NCBI GenBank assembly: GCA_010015805.1
Contig: ML978124.1
Location: 1,550,001 to 1,614,000 of the forward strand
Reading direction: 5' to 3'
Origin: Rhizodiscina lignyota
Taxonomy: Eukaryota
Length of the DNA: 64,000 bases
Under the pieces are notes generated by a model, which saw only the letters and a list, made by a program, of their open reading frames with translations, ran no database searches and was not told the origin of the DNA. The position numbers were made by a program, and so were the translations under genes. Position 1 is the first letter of the stretch, and the number at the start of each line of letters is the position of its first letter. Of the stretch, positions 6,937 to 61,880 are shown piece by piece.

Positions 6937-8713
6937 AAGTGCTATCCAAATGTAGGAGAGGTATGGTACAAAGTCTTTAAGGTTCGTAGCGTTAGGCCAC
7001 GAATAGTTTGAAGCAGACTGCCGCACACGGCAGATGTCATTGCAGAAGCTCCTGCCTTCTTGCCCGCTCAAGCCTTGGGTATCACATGCAAGGTACGCTC
7101 ACGAGAAACTAACTCCTTCGTATTGCTGCAGAGTGTCAGTTCTTCAGCTGTTGCTGAAGGCATATTGGGGACTCCATCGAGTAGGATGCTGAGCTTCCCG
7201 GAAGCAAACTTGGAGAGCAGTTCGACGTTAGGTTCGATGAATGTCCTCTGGATTTTCACCTGTAGCTATATACACTCTCCAGCTCCAAGAGTGTTTGTTA
7301 TTCATGACGTAAACTGACGTGGTGGCATCGGCCATCTCGAGCTGGGAGCTACCTCAACGTTCCCGCGGAGTCAATCTACTTCAATAATTGCTGCATTCAG
7401 AGATGCATTTGCGCCTGTCTCAACGCTGGCTATTGCACAGTTCCTCGCAAGTCGCATGCAGTGATCTTGACGAGGACATGGAGCCAGTTTTCTTGCCATG
7501 CAGCTTCTACGTCGCAAGTAACCTCGCGGCCTGAAAGCGGTTTCGAGACGTACGTAGTTCATTCGAATTGGCTTTCCCAGCTATTCCCAGAACGAGTTGG
7601 CCTCCGCATTCGACGAGCCGGTCCCAGACTTTGCTTCGCGTCGCGCGACGCGGGAGCAGCCTTCGGTGGTCGGGGTTTGCGCGTCAGGGTCGTGGGGAGC
7701 TTCAAGCACGGCGAATAGAGAAGACGATGGAGTTGGCTTTGCATGTGGGAAAACTTGATCTGAGCTGACGATCAGCAGTTCCTACGCATGCAGTCCGCCC
7801 TACAAGGCGAAAATAGCTGACCGGCCTGCAAGTTCTCGTCTCTCAAAAACTGCCACGCATGGACGTGCAGCTGCAGTGCGGCTCGTCAGACACAGGGAGA
7901 AGAGTCGGAAGAGTCATCGGCGTGCGAGGGGAAGGGTCAGTAGGCGCGTTTTAAAGGGCAATGGACACGGCCAGACGCTGATTCGAGTCTTGCTCCTGGT
8001 CGGAGGCAAAGGTCGTGACTCGTATTTCGATGCCGTGGGCGGTGGTGCGGAAATTAACTGCGAAAGACGCCCTGGCCCGATGCGCTGCAGCAAATCACAG
8101 GGCTCGCGCGGCGAGGGCAACCAGGTGCAGATTACGCCCAAGTATTCGGCTTGCCGGTCATTCGGACGCAGGCATCGTCTTTGCATGGAAACAAGAAACG
8201 TGCCGGTGCTGGGTCGGCCTGGCAAAAGACGCTTGTCAGATGTGAAGCAGGCCCAGGAACGCCTGGCTGGCTGGCAAGCTCTAGCGCGCCTTCGCTTCCA
8301 CGACGCAGAAAAGGACTACGAGCGTCAGCGCAGCGTCGCCTCATACACAAACGCAACACTGCTTCCAATCATCTGCGCAACCTCTACATGAACACTGCAT
8401 TGCTTCTGCCCATACTTGCCCGGCGCACCGTTTAGTAATGCGCTAATCGCAGCTGAGCGACGGTGTAGCTCCCATAAGCTGACCACCGCAAGCACCGCCT
8501 CTGCCTCCCAAAATCTACAGCACCTCCGACTCGAACTGCTTCTTCATCTGCCCACCGCCCTCTGCACCACGCCTTTTGGAACTCTTGTGCAACCGCAGAG
8601 CCCGAGAGCTGGGATGCTCCACCCGTTGCCATGAAGCGCAAATTTCACATTTCGCTCGGCCATCTGGTAGGCTGTTTTTGCTTTTGTTGCGAGAGGCCCG
8701 GATATCCACCACC

Positions 8714-53711: not shown

Positions 53712-54378
53712 TTAGGTTGCTTGTGGTCGCGAAGGCAAGTAGCAGGGTGGTGTCGCATCTGACAATGTGGAAGTCGCGACACAACCACGCGGCTGACCGG
53801 TATAAGCCACAGCCGAATTCCGCGCTTGTAAATACTGGCTAAATCTTCTCAATAGGTCACGCGTGGTATACCGCCCGAGCGTGGAATTAGATTCTGTTCG
53901 GGCCTTCATCGTGGATTCGTGTCTCACAATTCCCCCTTTTGGTATAGAGTGAATCATCACCGCGTGGCCGAGTAAGCGCAACATGCAAGAGCTGTCAATG
54001 GAACGAGTTCTGGAGACAGAATTTTCAATTGCGCAGACCGTTGCTATTTGAAAGCCGCTCAATGCCGACCCCGAGTGCCAACATATGTTGTAACATTAGC
54101 TGGGCCTCATCACTCGGTGCAGAACGACACCCAACACTTCCGCAATTCGGCCTTGGCATTCCCCTGTCACCGAAAAGTTTAAACGCAACTCGCATGTTCA
54201 TTTTGTTCTGCTTCACTACCACGCTCTCTTCTCTCTTTCTTCACCACAACGCGGACGCTCTCCTCCACAACCACAACAAACACCTCTTTCCCGACACAGA
54301 ACTCAAACATTCTCATCCTACCACCCTCTATTTCGCGTGTTTACTCTAAGAACAGAGTTACGAAGACTGTCAGTCAAG

Positions 54379-56061
54379 ATGTGCAAGGACACATTCATTC
54401 ACTACGCGTGCGGATGCGTGGAGAAGGACGTGCCTGAAATATGCGACTTTTGGCGACAACTTTCGAATCACCCGCTTAACTACTATCTGTGTGACTATTG
54501 GGACATCGGCCAGGACAATCGTCCACATGCGTGTGTGAAAGCGGAATGTCAAGTGGCGTTCCAGCAGGCACAGCTGCGCGCTGCGCAAGCGCAGCAGGAC
54601 GCCGAGCAGCGTCGTCGAGATTTCGAGAATCGATTAATCGCAAGAATTCGTCAAATCGAGCGGCAGATGGTGGAATATACGAGGAACAACGCTCCCGTTC
54701 CGCTGGTGCTGGAACAGGAGTGGTATGGTGTCATCAAAGGATTGATCGAGAGCAAAGGCCCATTGACCTTGATGCCCGGCGGAGCTGCGTGGGTGGACCA
54801 ACTTGACCCAGAGCAGAGGAAGCAACAAGAGAAGGAGGCGTTGCGCATGCTTATGCGTCATCAAAACCTGAAGCTTTCTCGTCGCCTGAGAGAAGAAGCC
54901 GAAAGGCAACAGCAAAGGGAACTTAGGGAAGCTCGAGTGCACATGGCTGCAGCTGGCATCGCAATGCCTAGTGCTGGACCGTCTAACATGGCATTGAATT
55001 ATGAGATGGGACCAACCACTATGTCGAACCCGTATACCGTCTACCCGATGCCGAATACTGGCCCAGGCACCATGATGCCGCCGCCACCGCCGCCAAACCT
55101 TGGAATGGGATCGAACAACCTCATTCACCCATTCGCGGACGACTACACCATGTCTGATGTCGGATCGAGCAGCATGATGTTGCCGGTCCCTCCAATTCCA
55201 GCGAACTTCTTCCACCCCAACTTCACCCCCAACTTCACAACGCCACCTGCCGTACCGACTGCTACGGTGCCGGAATACCGAAGCGGTGGTATTGCAATAA
55301 CAAACCCCTTCTTCAATGCCTATGCCATGGCAAATGCTGGACCATCCGACACAATGTCGAACAGTGGAATAGGACCGAGTACGACGACAATTGGTGAATC
55401 GTCTACCGAAACGTTGGATCATGCTAGCGAAACGTTGGATCATGACATGGGAACAAACACGATGATGATTCCCCAGCAACCGATGAGCCCGTGGGCAAGT
55501 ACTGCAGGAAGCATGTACCACGCGCTCCAAGCTGCTGAGCAACAAGGCCCTGGATTCATCGACCCGTCGACGATCATGAACCTTGACAATGTTGGAGGAG
55601 CGATGGGAGGCTCGCCCGGAGCAGGTCAGATAGCGACCCTTTCGGGAATGTACATCGGTCCGCACGAAGGCCATGCAGACCACAGGGGTAATGTAGACCT
55701 GGACAAGTTACCTGAGGACGCTCTTACTACTGCTGCTGGAACAGGTGCTACAAGGGAGGCGCTTGGAGACGAGATTGATGTGGGACACACCGCTCTGACG
55801 AGCAACCCTACAAGAATGGACACTGCTATGCTTACACATATTAGGAGGCCGGTTTATCTACCGCAGTTCGAGAGCGGTATTACCCGTTCTCAAGCAATGA
55901 GCCGCGCGAGGGCCGCGGTGAGCAGCACTGAGGTGCTTGCTCACAAGATCTTCAGGTCGCAGAGGGAGGGGGGGCCGGTAGAGGTAGGGGAGGGGGTGGA
56001 ACTTTGCTATTTTGCTATTATTACAAGCGTGACGCTGGCACAGCGTGCGCCGGGACTTTAG
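54379..56061 (+). CDS. Orphan protein (~560 aa): Cys-rich N-terminus, coiled coil, Met/Pro/Gly internal repeats
   Basis: Long ORF starting MCKDTFIHYACGC. The 3' end may be spliced further. Confidence 0.7.
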   Translation: MCKDTFIHYACGCVEKDVPEICDFWRQLSNHPLNYYLCDYWDIGQDNRPHACVKAECQVAFQQAQLRAAQAQQDAEQRRRDFENRLIARIRQIERQMVEYTRNNAPVPLVLEQEWYGVIKGLIESKGPLTLMPGGAAWVDQLDPEQRKQQEKEALRMLMRHQNLKLSRRLREEAERQQQRELREARVHMAAAGIAMPSAGPSNMALNYEMGPTTMSNPYTVYPMPNTGPGTMMPPPPPPNLGMGSNNLIHPFADDYTMSDVGSSSMMLPVPPIPANFFHPNFTPNFTTPPAVPTATVPEYRSGGIAITNPFFNAYAMANAGPSDTMSNSGIGPSTTTIGESSTETLDHASETLDHDMGTNTMMIPQQPMSPWASTAGSMYHALQAAEQQGPGFIDPSTIMNLDNVGGAMGGSPGAGQIATLSGMYIGPHEGHADHRGNVDLDKLPEDALTTAAGTGATREALGDEIDVGHTALTSNPTRMDTAMLTHIRRPVYLPQFESGITRSQAMSRARAAVSSTEVLAHKIFRSQREGGPVEVGEGVELCYFAIITSVTLAQRAPGL

Positions 56062-56180
56062 GGTAGATACCACACGGGGCAAGGGTTTGCCCCGGCCTCT
56101 TTAGGCAAAAATGAACTGCTGTTTTGTTACACGAAATGCGTTTGAAATGCTAGCTATGTGTTGATTTATCTCCCCTGCCA

Positions 56181-56324
56181 GTTTCTGGCGATCGAACGAG
56201 ACCCGTAACGGCGCCCCTTTTACACGACATCAAGAAGCAAATCTTCCAAGGCAGGCCGGGTAGGCTGCTCCCTACCAACCTCGAATATAAACTCACTGAT
56301 ATGCGGAAGTGTTTTAGAAGTGCT
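56181..56324. repeat. Fold-back repeat family, copy 1
   Basis: gtttctggcgatcgaacgagac...gacatcaagaagcaaatcttccaaggcagg...gctccctaccaacctcgaa...gatatgcggaag...agaagtgct aligns with copies 2 and 3. Confidence 0.9.
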
Positions 56325-56364
56325 GAAGTTGAATCTAAAGAGCCTTATTTAGCGAGGGAGAAAT

Positions 56365-56490
56365 ATCGAACAAGGTCCGGGCTGGCGTTCCTCTGGCGCG
56401 ACATCGAGAAGCAAATCTTCCAAGGCAGGCTGCTCCCTACCAACCTCGAACGTATACTCAGTGATATGCGGAGGTTTCTTGGAAGTGCTA
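56365..56490. repeat. Fold-back repeat family, copy 2 (tandem to copy 1)
   Basis: Reads atcgaacaagg...gacatcgagaagcaaatcttccaaggcaggctgctccctaccaacctcgaa...gatatgcggagg...ggaagtgct. Confidence 0.9.
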
Positions 56491-56507
56491 AATGTAAAGC
56501 TAATCGA

Positions 56508-56686
56508 GGCCCTGTTTGGGCAGCCAGGAATGTCGCATCTTAGGCTGACTTCAATATAGAAGCGATATCGAGATCATGAACTGGAGACCTGAGTATAAAG
56601 AACAGGTGAAGAACAGCTGTTAACAGTACTGACAAAGCCCATGGGGATCATATATATATGAGATATCTAGCTTGCTAAACAGGGCC
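56508..56686. mobile_element. Candidate Tourist/PIF-Harbinger-like MITE (179 bp)
   Basis: Perfect 10-bp inverted termini GGCCCTGTTT / AAACAGGGCC (14/17 when extended). TTA lies on the right flank, but the left flank is CGA, so the target-site duplication is imperfect. Confidence 0.45.
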
Positions 56687-57244
56687 TTAGTCTTTCAAGT
56701 TTCAACCGCAGCTCGCAGGAGGTACTACCCATTCTCGAGCACCGAGCCACGATACAGGTGCGACCAACCAATTGACGACCACCCGGTCACTTAAGAAACA
56801 AAAAAGTTGAGTCATGGCTATAATATGTCGAATGGCAAGCACGGATACTCTCATTAATCATTACAAGTCATACACCCTAGAGTTACGCCATTTGGATAAG
56901 GACCAGTTGATGTATGTTCAATTGAGCTTTCACTGATGCTCTCCTTTATGTTGAAAAACAAAACCCGTTCTTACTCCATCCTTGCAGGTCTACCAGGCTC
57001 GACTATTATTGACTGGCCTATGAACGACTAATTCATTGACGACTGGCCGGTCAACAGTGTTGACGTACCTGAGAATAAGGTACTCTTGCCATACAAGGAA
57101 CAGGAACCCGCTCGATGGGAAGGCGTTCGAAATTTGCTGCATTTGCTGAACAAGCGCTAATCTCACGAAATGAACCTGAGGCAAGACGGGAAGTCGTTTA
57201 GAGGCGCTTGCAATTTGCTTAATTTGCCGAACACTACTGTGAAG

Positions 57245-58505
57245 CTACCTGATAAAAGGTATGCCAATCCAAGTCCTCAATCGATACTGTACGTAGTCGT
57301 CTCCAAAGAATTTGACGAGATGCTCCTCTTCATCTGTGCGAAAATGTTAGCAGCCCATCTGAATTTGCGCTTCAAAGCCCCTCGCCATACGAAGGCGCTA
57401 GTTTCCGGCGAGCGAACGAGACTTGCAACGGCGTTGCCTTCTCTGTGACATGGAGAAGAAATCTTCTAAGGCAGGCGAGGCAAGTTACTTCCTGACAACT
57501 TCGAATGCAACTTCACCGACGTGAGGAAGCTTCTTAGAAGTGCTAGGGGCAACTTTAATAGCGTGGCTCCGCAGACTGTTCGCTCGCTGGAAACTAGCTC
57601 CTTCATATTGAAAAGAACGCGATATCTCGCCCTTTTGTGCTCGTCGACGTCGTCGTCGCAAGAGAGGAAATGGTAGGCTTACGCGCAATCCGATGGTTAA
57701 AGAAATCCCAGAGCACCACAAGGTATACCCAGAAACAGATCGCATTGCCCAGAAACACCTGCAGTCCCACGGCCCACCAGAAGAAGCCGAAATAGCTCGG
57801 ATGTCTCAACACAGCGTAGATGCCCGTTGTAACAAGTCTATGATCCCTCGCCTTCTTCGTTTGAACCTTGTGGTTGAAGCTGGTACCGGCATGCGCCATA
57901 GCCATACTCCTGCATAGCTGGCCTATGGCCATTACAACCAATGCGCCCCATTGTACCGGCTCGTAAGTAAAGTGTGACTGCCAGCGCGGGAAGAAGAGGC
58001 TCGTGACGGTCGTTTCGAGAAGCGCGCAGAAGTTCGCGACGGTATACTGCCAGCCGTTGTTGAAAAGGAGGAAGGTGGAAGTCGTCGCTTTTGGAACGTT
58101 GAATCGTGCGTGCGTCCAGAACTCGAGGAAGTGGAACAGTGCGAGGGCGCCGAGGAGAAAGAACACGCGCCATGCCCGTGATGGGTCCGATGCTTCGAGA
58201 GAAAGAGCAGCATTGGCTGCTAGCGGGATGCTGAGGCCTAATGTAATTCCTAGAAAGAAAGCGCGCAGACCGATGCCAGACTGTGAGCGCTTGTGACCAG
58301 GAAGAAGTTCGTCAAAGACGACAAGTGGAGGGGGGCTGGCGGTCGTATTTCTCGGCAAGGTCGCGTCCCCTTTTGGAGTCCAATTGCCTTTCTCTTCAGG
58401 CCTATCTAGAGGCCATGATATTTGAGGGTCTCCGCCATCGTGGCCATTCGCGTGATGGTAGTCACCGTTGGTAGTTTCGAAGTTCGGAATCAGCGGGTCT
58501 GCCAT
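57245..58505 (-). CDS. STE14: Isoprenylcysteine carboxyl methyltransferase (2 exons; 349-nt intron 57334-57682)
   Basis: Contains FHFLEF, GQLCRSMAMAHAGTSFNH, HRLVTTGIYAVLRHPSYFGFFWW and, after splicing, RIA|HEEEHLVKFFGDDYVQYRLRTWIGIPFIR*. Confidence 0.95.
57386..57610. mobile_element. Fold-back repeat family copy 3 with 33-bp inverted arms, inside the STE14 intron (MITE-like or structured intronic element)
   Basis: Arm 57386-57418 matches the reverse complement of 57578-57610 at 29/33. The interior 57401-57545 aligns with copies 1 and 2. Confidence 0.7.
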
Positions 58506-61234: not shown

Positions 61235-61880
61235 CTTTGGCACCCGAGCTGATGGCTTCGTACTAACTCTAGAGTAGTGTCTTTTAAAGAATGAGAAACG
61301 TCTTCATATGAGAATCGAGAATTAGAGGTTTACAAAATGCTGGAAGTTAATTCAGAAGAAGGGTTTAAGCGCTGGTGTGACCTGATATCTTCTGATGGAA
61401 AGGCTTTGCGGTGTCGGACCGCTCGATGGAGCACTGGAGTCCGATTTCCCGGAAGAAGGTATAGCGCTTCGTAAGGACCCTATTTTTTCGCCCATGGGCA
61501 AGGGATATCTCTCCGATTGCTATTTAGCCAAGCATGATGGACTCCTTGGACGGCGTTTGTAAGACTACTTATTATTTCAAGTCCCAGAGAGTGTTCGCTC
61601 GCAGGAAACTACCTCCTCCCTATCCCCCTTAGCACTAGGGCATTCCCGGCCTCGGTACAGAATGAGAAATCCTATAATACACGAATGCACGTGCTCACGC
61701 GCTAGGACGTTCTGGGCACTCCTGACACTAAGAGCAACAGCAAATTCGAACAGTTATATTGAACTTAAGTTTTAGGTCTAATGTGGTTTTTCGACATGCA
61801 CACTGAATAACTAGTGGCATAACCGCAAAGGGCCCCCGCCCTTCCTAATAAACTCAGTCAGTCTGGTTTTCCTTACTGTC

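Follow-up and report, generated by a model that had tools for sequence, protein, structure and literature searches.

A MITE-like inverted-repeat element inside an old STE14 intron of the Dothideomycete Rhizodiscina lignyota

Introduction

Fungal MITEs include mimp of Fusarium and Guest of Neurospora, and introner-like elements (ILEs) of Dothideomycetes were reportedly treated by van der Burgt et al. in 2012. As Collemare et al. (2015, PMC4457414) portray them, the ILEs of this fungal class are whole introns that are copied, together with their splice signals, to new positions; they are multicopy, longer than regular introns and stable in their predicted folds. Related behavior appears in the introners of Micromonas and other lineages, many of which are presented in PMC11282704 as MITE-like DNA transposons with terminal inverted repeats (TIRs) and short target-site duplications (TSDs). 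In that account, an introner brings one splice site with it and recruits the second from the TSD.

MITEs are defined in a source on elements of Epichloe festucae (PMC3227409) by TIRs, a TSD, the lack of coding capacity and many copies of homogeneous small size. The same source treats their occurrence in or near fungal genes, introns included, as well documented, and one of its families, EFT-9m, is 246 bp long, with TA and a 34-bp TIR at 88%. A further described system concerns structure and not mobility: in yeast, stems that shorten the distance between the 5′ splice site (5′SS) and the branch point promote splicing of long introns, according to the portion of Rogic et al. (2008, PMC2536676) that deals with such stems.

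Here we analyze an unusually long intron in the STE14 gene of Rhizodiscina lignyota, a member of the Dothideomycetes (Aulographales), within a 64-kb stretch of genomic DNA that we call the window. A sequence-only reading of this stretch had attributed the intron's length to a nested fold-back element, a self-folding mobile or structured RNA unit, and had left three identities for it side by side: a tolerated MITE, an ILE and a small-RNA precursor. We find it very probable that the STE14 intron is an old phase-1 intron into which one copy of a non-autonomous TIR DNA transposon (MITE) has been inserted.

Results

The minus strand at 57245 to 58505 carries a two-exon STE14/ICMT gene, which encodes a prenylcysteine methyltransferase. 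Exon 1 (57683 to 58505, minus strand) starts with an ATG at 58505 to 58503 and comprises 274 codons plus the first base of a split His codon; its translation ends in ...LWDFFNHRIA, followed by C/GTAAGC, and it matches the Pfam ICMT domain (PF04140) with an E value of 1.7e-24. The phase-1 spliceosomal intron that follows (57334 to 57682, minus strand) is 349 nt long, with the donor GTAAGC at 57682 to 57677, the acceptor CAG at 57336 to 57334 and the branch motif GCTAAC at 57351 to 57346, whose branch A (57347) lies 13 nt from the 3′ end. Exon 2 (57245 to 57333, minus strand) contributes the last two bases of the His codon, reads (H)EEEHLVKFFGDDYVQYRLRTWIGIPFIR and terminates at a TAG at 57247 to 57245.

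Several lines of evidence bear on this splice model. The conserved C-terminal motif EE..L..FFG..Y..Y...GIPF, as seen in an alignment of 24 relatives (A1), is encoded at 57333 to 57245 in a different frame from exon 1, and its EE..L..FFG..Y..Y portion is restored solely by excision of 57682 to 57334 (349 nt). Unspliced read-through, in contrast, reaches a stop after 27 codons and loses the conserved C-terminal motif. A protein search also recovered the deposited R. lignyota protein (P0002), which is 303 aa long, is 100% identical to our exon 1 and then continues ...HRIAHEEEHLVKFFGDDYVQYRLRTWIGIPFIR; its junction corresponds to exactly the 349-nt intron. This bears out the sequence-only reading, which had held that the STE14 frame is completed only with an intron running from 57682 to 57334. 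Splicing of the 349-nt intron is thus predicted from the deposited gene model and from the conservation of exon 2, and the host gene, with the ICMT domain and the C-terminal motif both present, belongs to the ICMT/Ste14 family. Other introns of this region had been described as short, and this agrees with splice-signal models for three other spot-checked genes of the window (49 [or 70], 62 and 59 nt) and with the length of the orthologous intron in relatives (47 to 64 nt).

Inside the STE14 intron lies an element of ∼218 nt with terminal inverted arms. The arm on the 3′-splice-site side (57387 to 57417) and the arm on the 5′-splice-site side (57578 to 57608) are 31 nt long, 90% complementary and 160 nt apart, and they mark exactly where the repeated unit begins and ends. 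In a survey of the whole 64 kb for inverted pairs of at least 22 nt that are at most 600 nt apart, these arms were the strongest of five pairs, the runner-up being 28 nt at 75%. Arms of 33 nt matching at 29 of 33 positions had been proposed before; that description is roughly right, although one arm is offset by a single base in its coordinates (8/33 as written). The inner stems (57463 to 57540) pair CTTCTAAG at 57463 with CTTAGAAG at 57533 and CTTCCTGAC at 57488 with GTGAGGAAG at 57521; all four segments are found where they had been placed, and the second stem pairs at 8 of 9 positions. Consistent with this architecture, comparison of the element with its reverse complement gives an alignment over positions 2 to 221 (E = 3.3e-7).

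The 216-nt core of the MITE-like element (57390 to 57605), to which a rise in contig depth is confined (see below), is flanked by TA at 57388 to 57389 and at 57606 to 57607, so that the plus-strand borders read ...GCCA-TA-CGAAGGCGCTAG...CTAGCTCCTTCA-TA-TTG.... TA is also found beside both other arm copies in the window, and all four arm ends then read N-TA-T. We regard the TA flanks as a putative TSD, since a 2-bp flank alone could also be chance or the terminal bases of the element; because all four arm ends share N-TA-T, the exact element end or target preference is uncertain. The element is wholly intronic, at a distance of 72 nt from the donor and 54 nt from the acceptor, and the host intron without it measures 131 nt.

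Further members of the family were found in the window by BLASTN and nhmmer with the single element as query. A truncated copy in the spacer downstream of STE14 (56172 to 56348, plus strand) is 74% identical over 149 nt (nhmmer E = 3.3e-20), and a second truncated copy (56347 to 56518, plus strand) stands in tandem with it and is 68% identical over 117 nt (E = 1.4e-11); both are without the far arm. At 61511 to 61622 (plus strand) is a half copy that spans element positions 112 to 220 (nhmmer E = 0.0019) and has one arm, with the arm motif at 3 mismatches, followed by N-TA-T. A solitary arm-like remnant at 7093 to 7126 (plus strand), followed by TA, shows ∼80% identity over 33 to 34 nt with E values of 0.003 to 0.008, a match that is weak on its own. 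The arm motif occurs three times in the window at no more than 3 mismatches, compared to 0 expected from 100 shuffles.

Beyond the window, we examined contigs of the public run X1 (34.2 million letters) that align to 56101 to 58500 at 80% likeness or more. X1 is the only public run that contains this stretch; it includes a fraction of 0.98 of the sampled words, is not recorded as RNA and behaves as DNA. Of its contig records, 110 align on 56101 to 58500, 95 of them only partially. Summed word depth over unique sequence is 151.5 to 157.6, including the bins that hold the splice sites (57301 to 57380 and 57621 to 57700), and over the element it rises to 1645.6 (57381 to 57460), 3162.5 (57461 to 57540) and 7280.1 (57541 to 57620), or 11 to 47 times baseline, with the peak (7280 against a baseline of ∼152) at the arm on the 5′-splice-site side. 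The first downstream copy reaches ∼1,520 to 1,680 (∼10 to 11 times baseline) and the second 640 to 690 (∼4 times). We read these values as tens of copies at 80% likeness or more, bearing in mind that summed depth is no exact count of copies and that either arm can match both arms of any other copy.

Individual contigs give the same picture. Among the pieces listed, those on four other contigs (82,956, 81,493, 733 and 71,303 nt long) match 57388 to 57608, 57388 to 57603, 57391 to 57599 and 57400 to 57609, respectively; these full-length pieces are 209 to 221 nt long with 32 to 37 differences each, and the copies diverge by ∼15%. Loose contig ends whose continuations disagree (agreement, 0.45 to 0.52) mark both borders, one of them at 57388 and the opposite one at 57603, 57604 and 57609. 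The element is thus a dispersed multicopy repeat with sharp borders at its arms and unrelated flanks. As a separate observation, transitions predominate among the differences between 57381 to 57620 and copies elsewhere (A>G 20, C>T 29, G>A 24, T>C 24; 97 of 138 changed places), a bias that either ordinary decay or RIP-like mutation could produce.

A multicopy repeat might also have been misplaced in the intron by assembly, the real intron then being ∼131 nt long, and the window's own Logan contigs are indeed interrupted within the element, between the end of record 1 at 57553 and the start of record 8 at 57580. Yet record 1 shows no difference across exon 2, the 3′ intron flank and the adjoining 166 nt of the element, and record 8 begins 30 nt inside the far arm and continues across the 5′ flank to reach exon 1. 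Both junctions between element and flank are bridged by contigs and are therefore present in an independent assembly of reads, although X1 is possibly the same sample as that behind the window's assembly. Among the Logan contigs listed, the stretch at 57554 to 57579 inside the element is unbridged, as expected of a repeat. We consider a misassembly extremely unlikely and treat the element as a resident of the intron.

The spacer that holds the tandem copies (56101 to 57240) separates two convergent genes, which end at 56061 and 57245, and is itself a small patch of repeats. It includes an inverted pair (56507 to 56534 and 56660 to 56687; 28 nt, 75%) and a direct repeat (56761 to 56789 and 57025 to 57053). 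Depth is 2 to 3 times baseline at 56741 to 56980, and five contigs diverge at 56832 with a mutual agreement of 0.91; this raised depth and common departure suggest another low-copy element that is truncated here. A 129-codon stop-to-stop frame (56154 to 56543, plus strand) spans the tandem copies and is a by-product of the repeat that could be miscalled as a gene. The convergent neighbor of STE14 is a 653-codon frame (54100 to 56061, plus strand) rich in Q, P, M and N, which had no Pfam match at E ≤ 0.001.

We compared the position of the intron with that in 80 STE14 loci of environmental relatives (41 to 52% identical), a set that includes repeat samplings of the same organism, the independent number being smaller. 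An intron of 47 to 64 nt occurs at the same codon and in the same phase in 33 of the 80 loci, is absent from 41 and was left unplaced in 6. Lengths were assigned by a strict motif, which gives 57 nt for locus L031 and 49 nt for L072; a loose motif gives 30 and 46 nt without a proper GT...AG. The nearest relatives (P0003 to P0005), which are 58 to 62% identical in A1 and 61 to 65% identical by BLASTP, all read R-K across C/GTAAG at the same codon, and P0010 and P0015 read through an in-frame intron of ∼54 to 57 nt there. The intron position is old, and therefore a short ancestral intron was expanded by the element and not created by it. The 131-nt remainder is about twice as long as the 47- to 64-nt introns of relatives, and the MITE does not account for all of the extra length. 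A search of the 80 relatives' STE14 loci (251,429 nt) by nhmmer with the element and a three-copy profile gave no match at E ≤ 1. Environmental gene calls often read through this intron, and false C termini (for example, P0006, P0007, P0011 and P0013) or in-frame insertions (P0010 and P0015) of this origin stand in protein databases.

These results also weigh on the possibility that the element is an introner or ILE whose insertion gave rise to the STE14 intron. The host belongs to the class in which ILEs have been described (PMC4457414), the intron is long and strongly folded and carries a multicopy unit, and many introners are themselves MITE-like DNA transposons with TIRs and TSDs, as portrayed in PMC11282704. 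However, the repeat is not a whole intron with splice signals: its borders fall at 57388 and at 57603 to 57609, it ends 72 nt before the donor and 54 nt before the acceptor, and the flanks that hold both splice sites are single-copy, at baseline depth in 57301 to 57380 and 57621 to 57700. Nor is the intron a recent gain, as it is present in 33 of 80 loci and in P0003 to P0005, and the element provides neither splice site, both of which lie outside it. Of the five copies or remnants found in the window, moreover, one is intronic and four lie outside all 23 scanned open reading frames (ORFs) of at least 170 aa. We consider an introner origin highly unlikely and set aside the ILE option of the sequence-only reading. 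A bold and improbable reading would still have other members of the family form complete introns elsewhere in the R. lignyota genome.

The read-through tails of the nearest relatives carry additional information on the age of the insertion. Compared without gaps over 19 to 21 residues, the P0003 tail matches the R. lignyota tail with a score reached by 4 of 1,000 shuffles and the P0005 tail with a score reached by 0 of 1,000; P0003 and P0005 match each other with a score reached by 4 of 1,000, and the P0004 tail is unrelated to that of R. lignyota (183 of 1,000). The 72-nt 5′ intron flank therefore appears to be common to P0003 and P0005, and because their tails match it, their introns would also have to be long. 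The P0003 tail shares its stop position with the tail of the window, where the TGA is the element's first three bases; this common stop codon could reflect an insertion shared with P0003, or chance. We observed separately that the 5′ flank (57610 to 57682) is conserved without indels in P0003 and P0005 though exon 1 is only ∼60% identical. The flank was also considered as a decayed copy of exon 2; support was weak at the nucleotide level (local score 11 versus 7.4 ± 1.5; 20 of 500 shuffles), and the idea was dropped after relatives' tails were compared to out-of-frame exon 2 (13 of 300 and 14 of 300 shuffles), since true read-through matches better.

The element has the features of a MITE: TIRs, a length below 500 bp without coding capacity, and many copies of homogeneous size. 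Its longest ATG-initiated ORF has 46 codons, and a protein search for relatives of this ORF returned one candidate and none at E ≤ 10. A transposase domain is absent from all 23 of the largest ORFs of the window (at least 170 aa), which are ordinary genes, including those for a CLC channel, a kinase, Ecl1, TTI1, an acetyltransferase, DAO and a hydrolase. Because of the TA flanks, the element probably belongs with Tc1/mariner (Stowaway-like) MITEs. Of the identities offered earlier, that of a tolerated MITE fits the TIRs, the small size, the multicopy state and the lack of coding capacity.

We next consider the fold of the intron, for which a comparison with shuffled controls had been recommended. 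The whole intron has a predicted free energy of −128.6 kcal/mol, compared to −105.1 ± 6.1 kcal/mol for shuffles (z = −3.87; 0 of 100 as good), and it is thus more stable than its controls, as the sequence-only reading had anticipated. The element alone gives −92.7 versus −61.9 ± 4.2 kcal/mol (z = −7.27; 0 of 200 as good), and the 131-nt intron without it is unremarkable (z = +0.11; 97 of 200 as good); all excess folding of the intron is due to the element. This result, the multicopy depth and the sharp borders at the arms together support the earlier idea of an intron expanded by a nested, self-folding mobile element. In the minimum-free-energy (MFE) fold the inner stems pair, and the predicted pairing probability between the arms averages 0.93 and is at least 0.79 at 29 of 31 positions. 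With the splice signals kept unpaired, the MFE fold brings the branch A to 13 nt from the 5′SS by the shortest path, a value that is also the median of 300 sampled structures (5 to 95%, 13 to 37 nt); with the 29 arm pairs only, the computed distance is 110 nt, versus 330 nt in the linear intron. An unconstrained structural distance of 8 was discarded, because the 5′ splice site is itself base-paired in the fold concerned. The hairpin that would hold the splice sites close is a thermodynamic prediction and not evidence of function.

From these observations we infer how the insertion may have been tolerated. A MITE copy would have inserted between the intact donor on one side and the intact branch motif and acceptor on the other side of an old intron. 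In the pre-mRNA its arms would zip into a long hairpin and loop out the 218 inserted bases, and the effective distance from 5′SS to branch point would stay near that of the 131-nt host intron. The insertion would be tolerated because the splice signals are intact and the intron can still be removed, with looping out as the presumed reason for this tolerance.

A stronger proposal is that the hairpin is functional and selected, as a zipper stem on which splicing of the long intron depends, a switch of splicing or intron retention or a small-RNA precursor, and that the insertion is old and shared with the genera of P0003 and P0005. The very stable fold (z = −7.27) and the strongly shortened predicted branch-point distance are compatible with it, as are the homologous 5′ flank of equal length in P0003 and P0005 (4 of 1,000 and 0 of 1,000 shuffles) and the stop of P0003 at the same codon. 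One inner stem is also changed on both sides between copies, being CTTCTAAG/CTTAGAAG in the intron and CTTCCAAG/CTTGGAAG in the second downstream copy, but a third copy breaks this "compensated" stem. Hairpin potential, however, is inherent in any TIR element, the copies differ by ∼15%, and other copies lie in nongenic spacer, some of them truncated without the second arm. The common stop position is a 1-in-20 coincidence, the P0004 tail is unrelated (183 of 1,000 shuffles), and a search of 55900 to 58000 against Rfam gave 0 matches on both strands at E ≤ 10. We judge both a selected role for the hairpin and its retention from an old, shared insertion to be improbable. If a hairpin switch did exist, intron retention would truncate the STE14 enzyme before its catalytic C terminus. 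Because any TIR element folds in this way and other copies are in spacer DNA, we do not take looping out to be a selected function; we take the predicted hairpin to be a by-product of transposon architecture and not an adaptation.

Discussion

The STE14 intron shares with the Dothideomycete ILEs of Collemare et al. (PMC4457414) its fungal class, its multicopy intronic sequence, a length above that of regular introns and a stable predicted fold. Unlike ILEs as they are characterized there, its repeat is internal, its splice signals are single-copy and its position is common to distant relatives. The likeness to introners of Micromonas and other lineages (PMC11282704) lies in a MITE-like form with TIRs, a short TSD that is putative here and an association with introns; those introners, by the same description, supply one splice site, whereas the R. 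lignyota element supplies neither.

Closer counterparts are EFT-9m and EFT-14m of Epichloe festucae, as described in PMC3227409. These are similar in size (means of 246 to 291 bp, compared to ∼220 bp here) and have in common with our element a TIR of ∼30 nt at ∼90%, a TA at each end, a lack of coding capacity, a copy number in the tens with many deleted and degenerate copies (65 to 85% identity), and sites in or near genes, introns included. The likeness is one of description only, the TSD here being putative and a parent transposase lacking in the window. R. lignyota is absent from titles and abstracts in our literature search, and neither "MITE" nor "intron" occurs in the main text of its genome paper (PMC7082219); the family appears to be undescribed but of a known type.

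With respect to structure, the nearest parallel is the zipper stem of long yeast introns such as that of RPS17B, in the treatment by Rogic et al. (PMC2536676). In both cases complementary segments in the stretch from the 5′ splice site to the branch point shorten the structural branch-point distance. In yeast the effect was established by mutation, whereas here it is computed, and the stem is a transposon TIR.

The insertion of a MITE into an intron is apparently a common and harmless event, and the interest of the R. lignyota locus lies in what it separates. It provides a clean negative, in that a long, folded, multicopy intron sequence in a Dothideomycete resembles an ILE and is not one. Two questions form a reusable test that distinguishes ILEs from MITEs: are the splice sites part of the repeat, and is the intron position a new one? 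The locus is also a natural case of a 218-nt insertion in a short-intron fungus in which TIRs are predicted to loop the insert out, and the STE14 intron could be used to probe how far the fungal spliceosome tolerates variation in intron length and structure.
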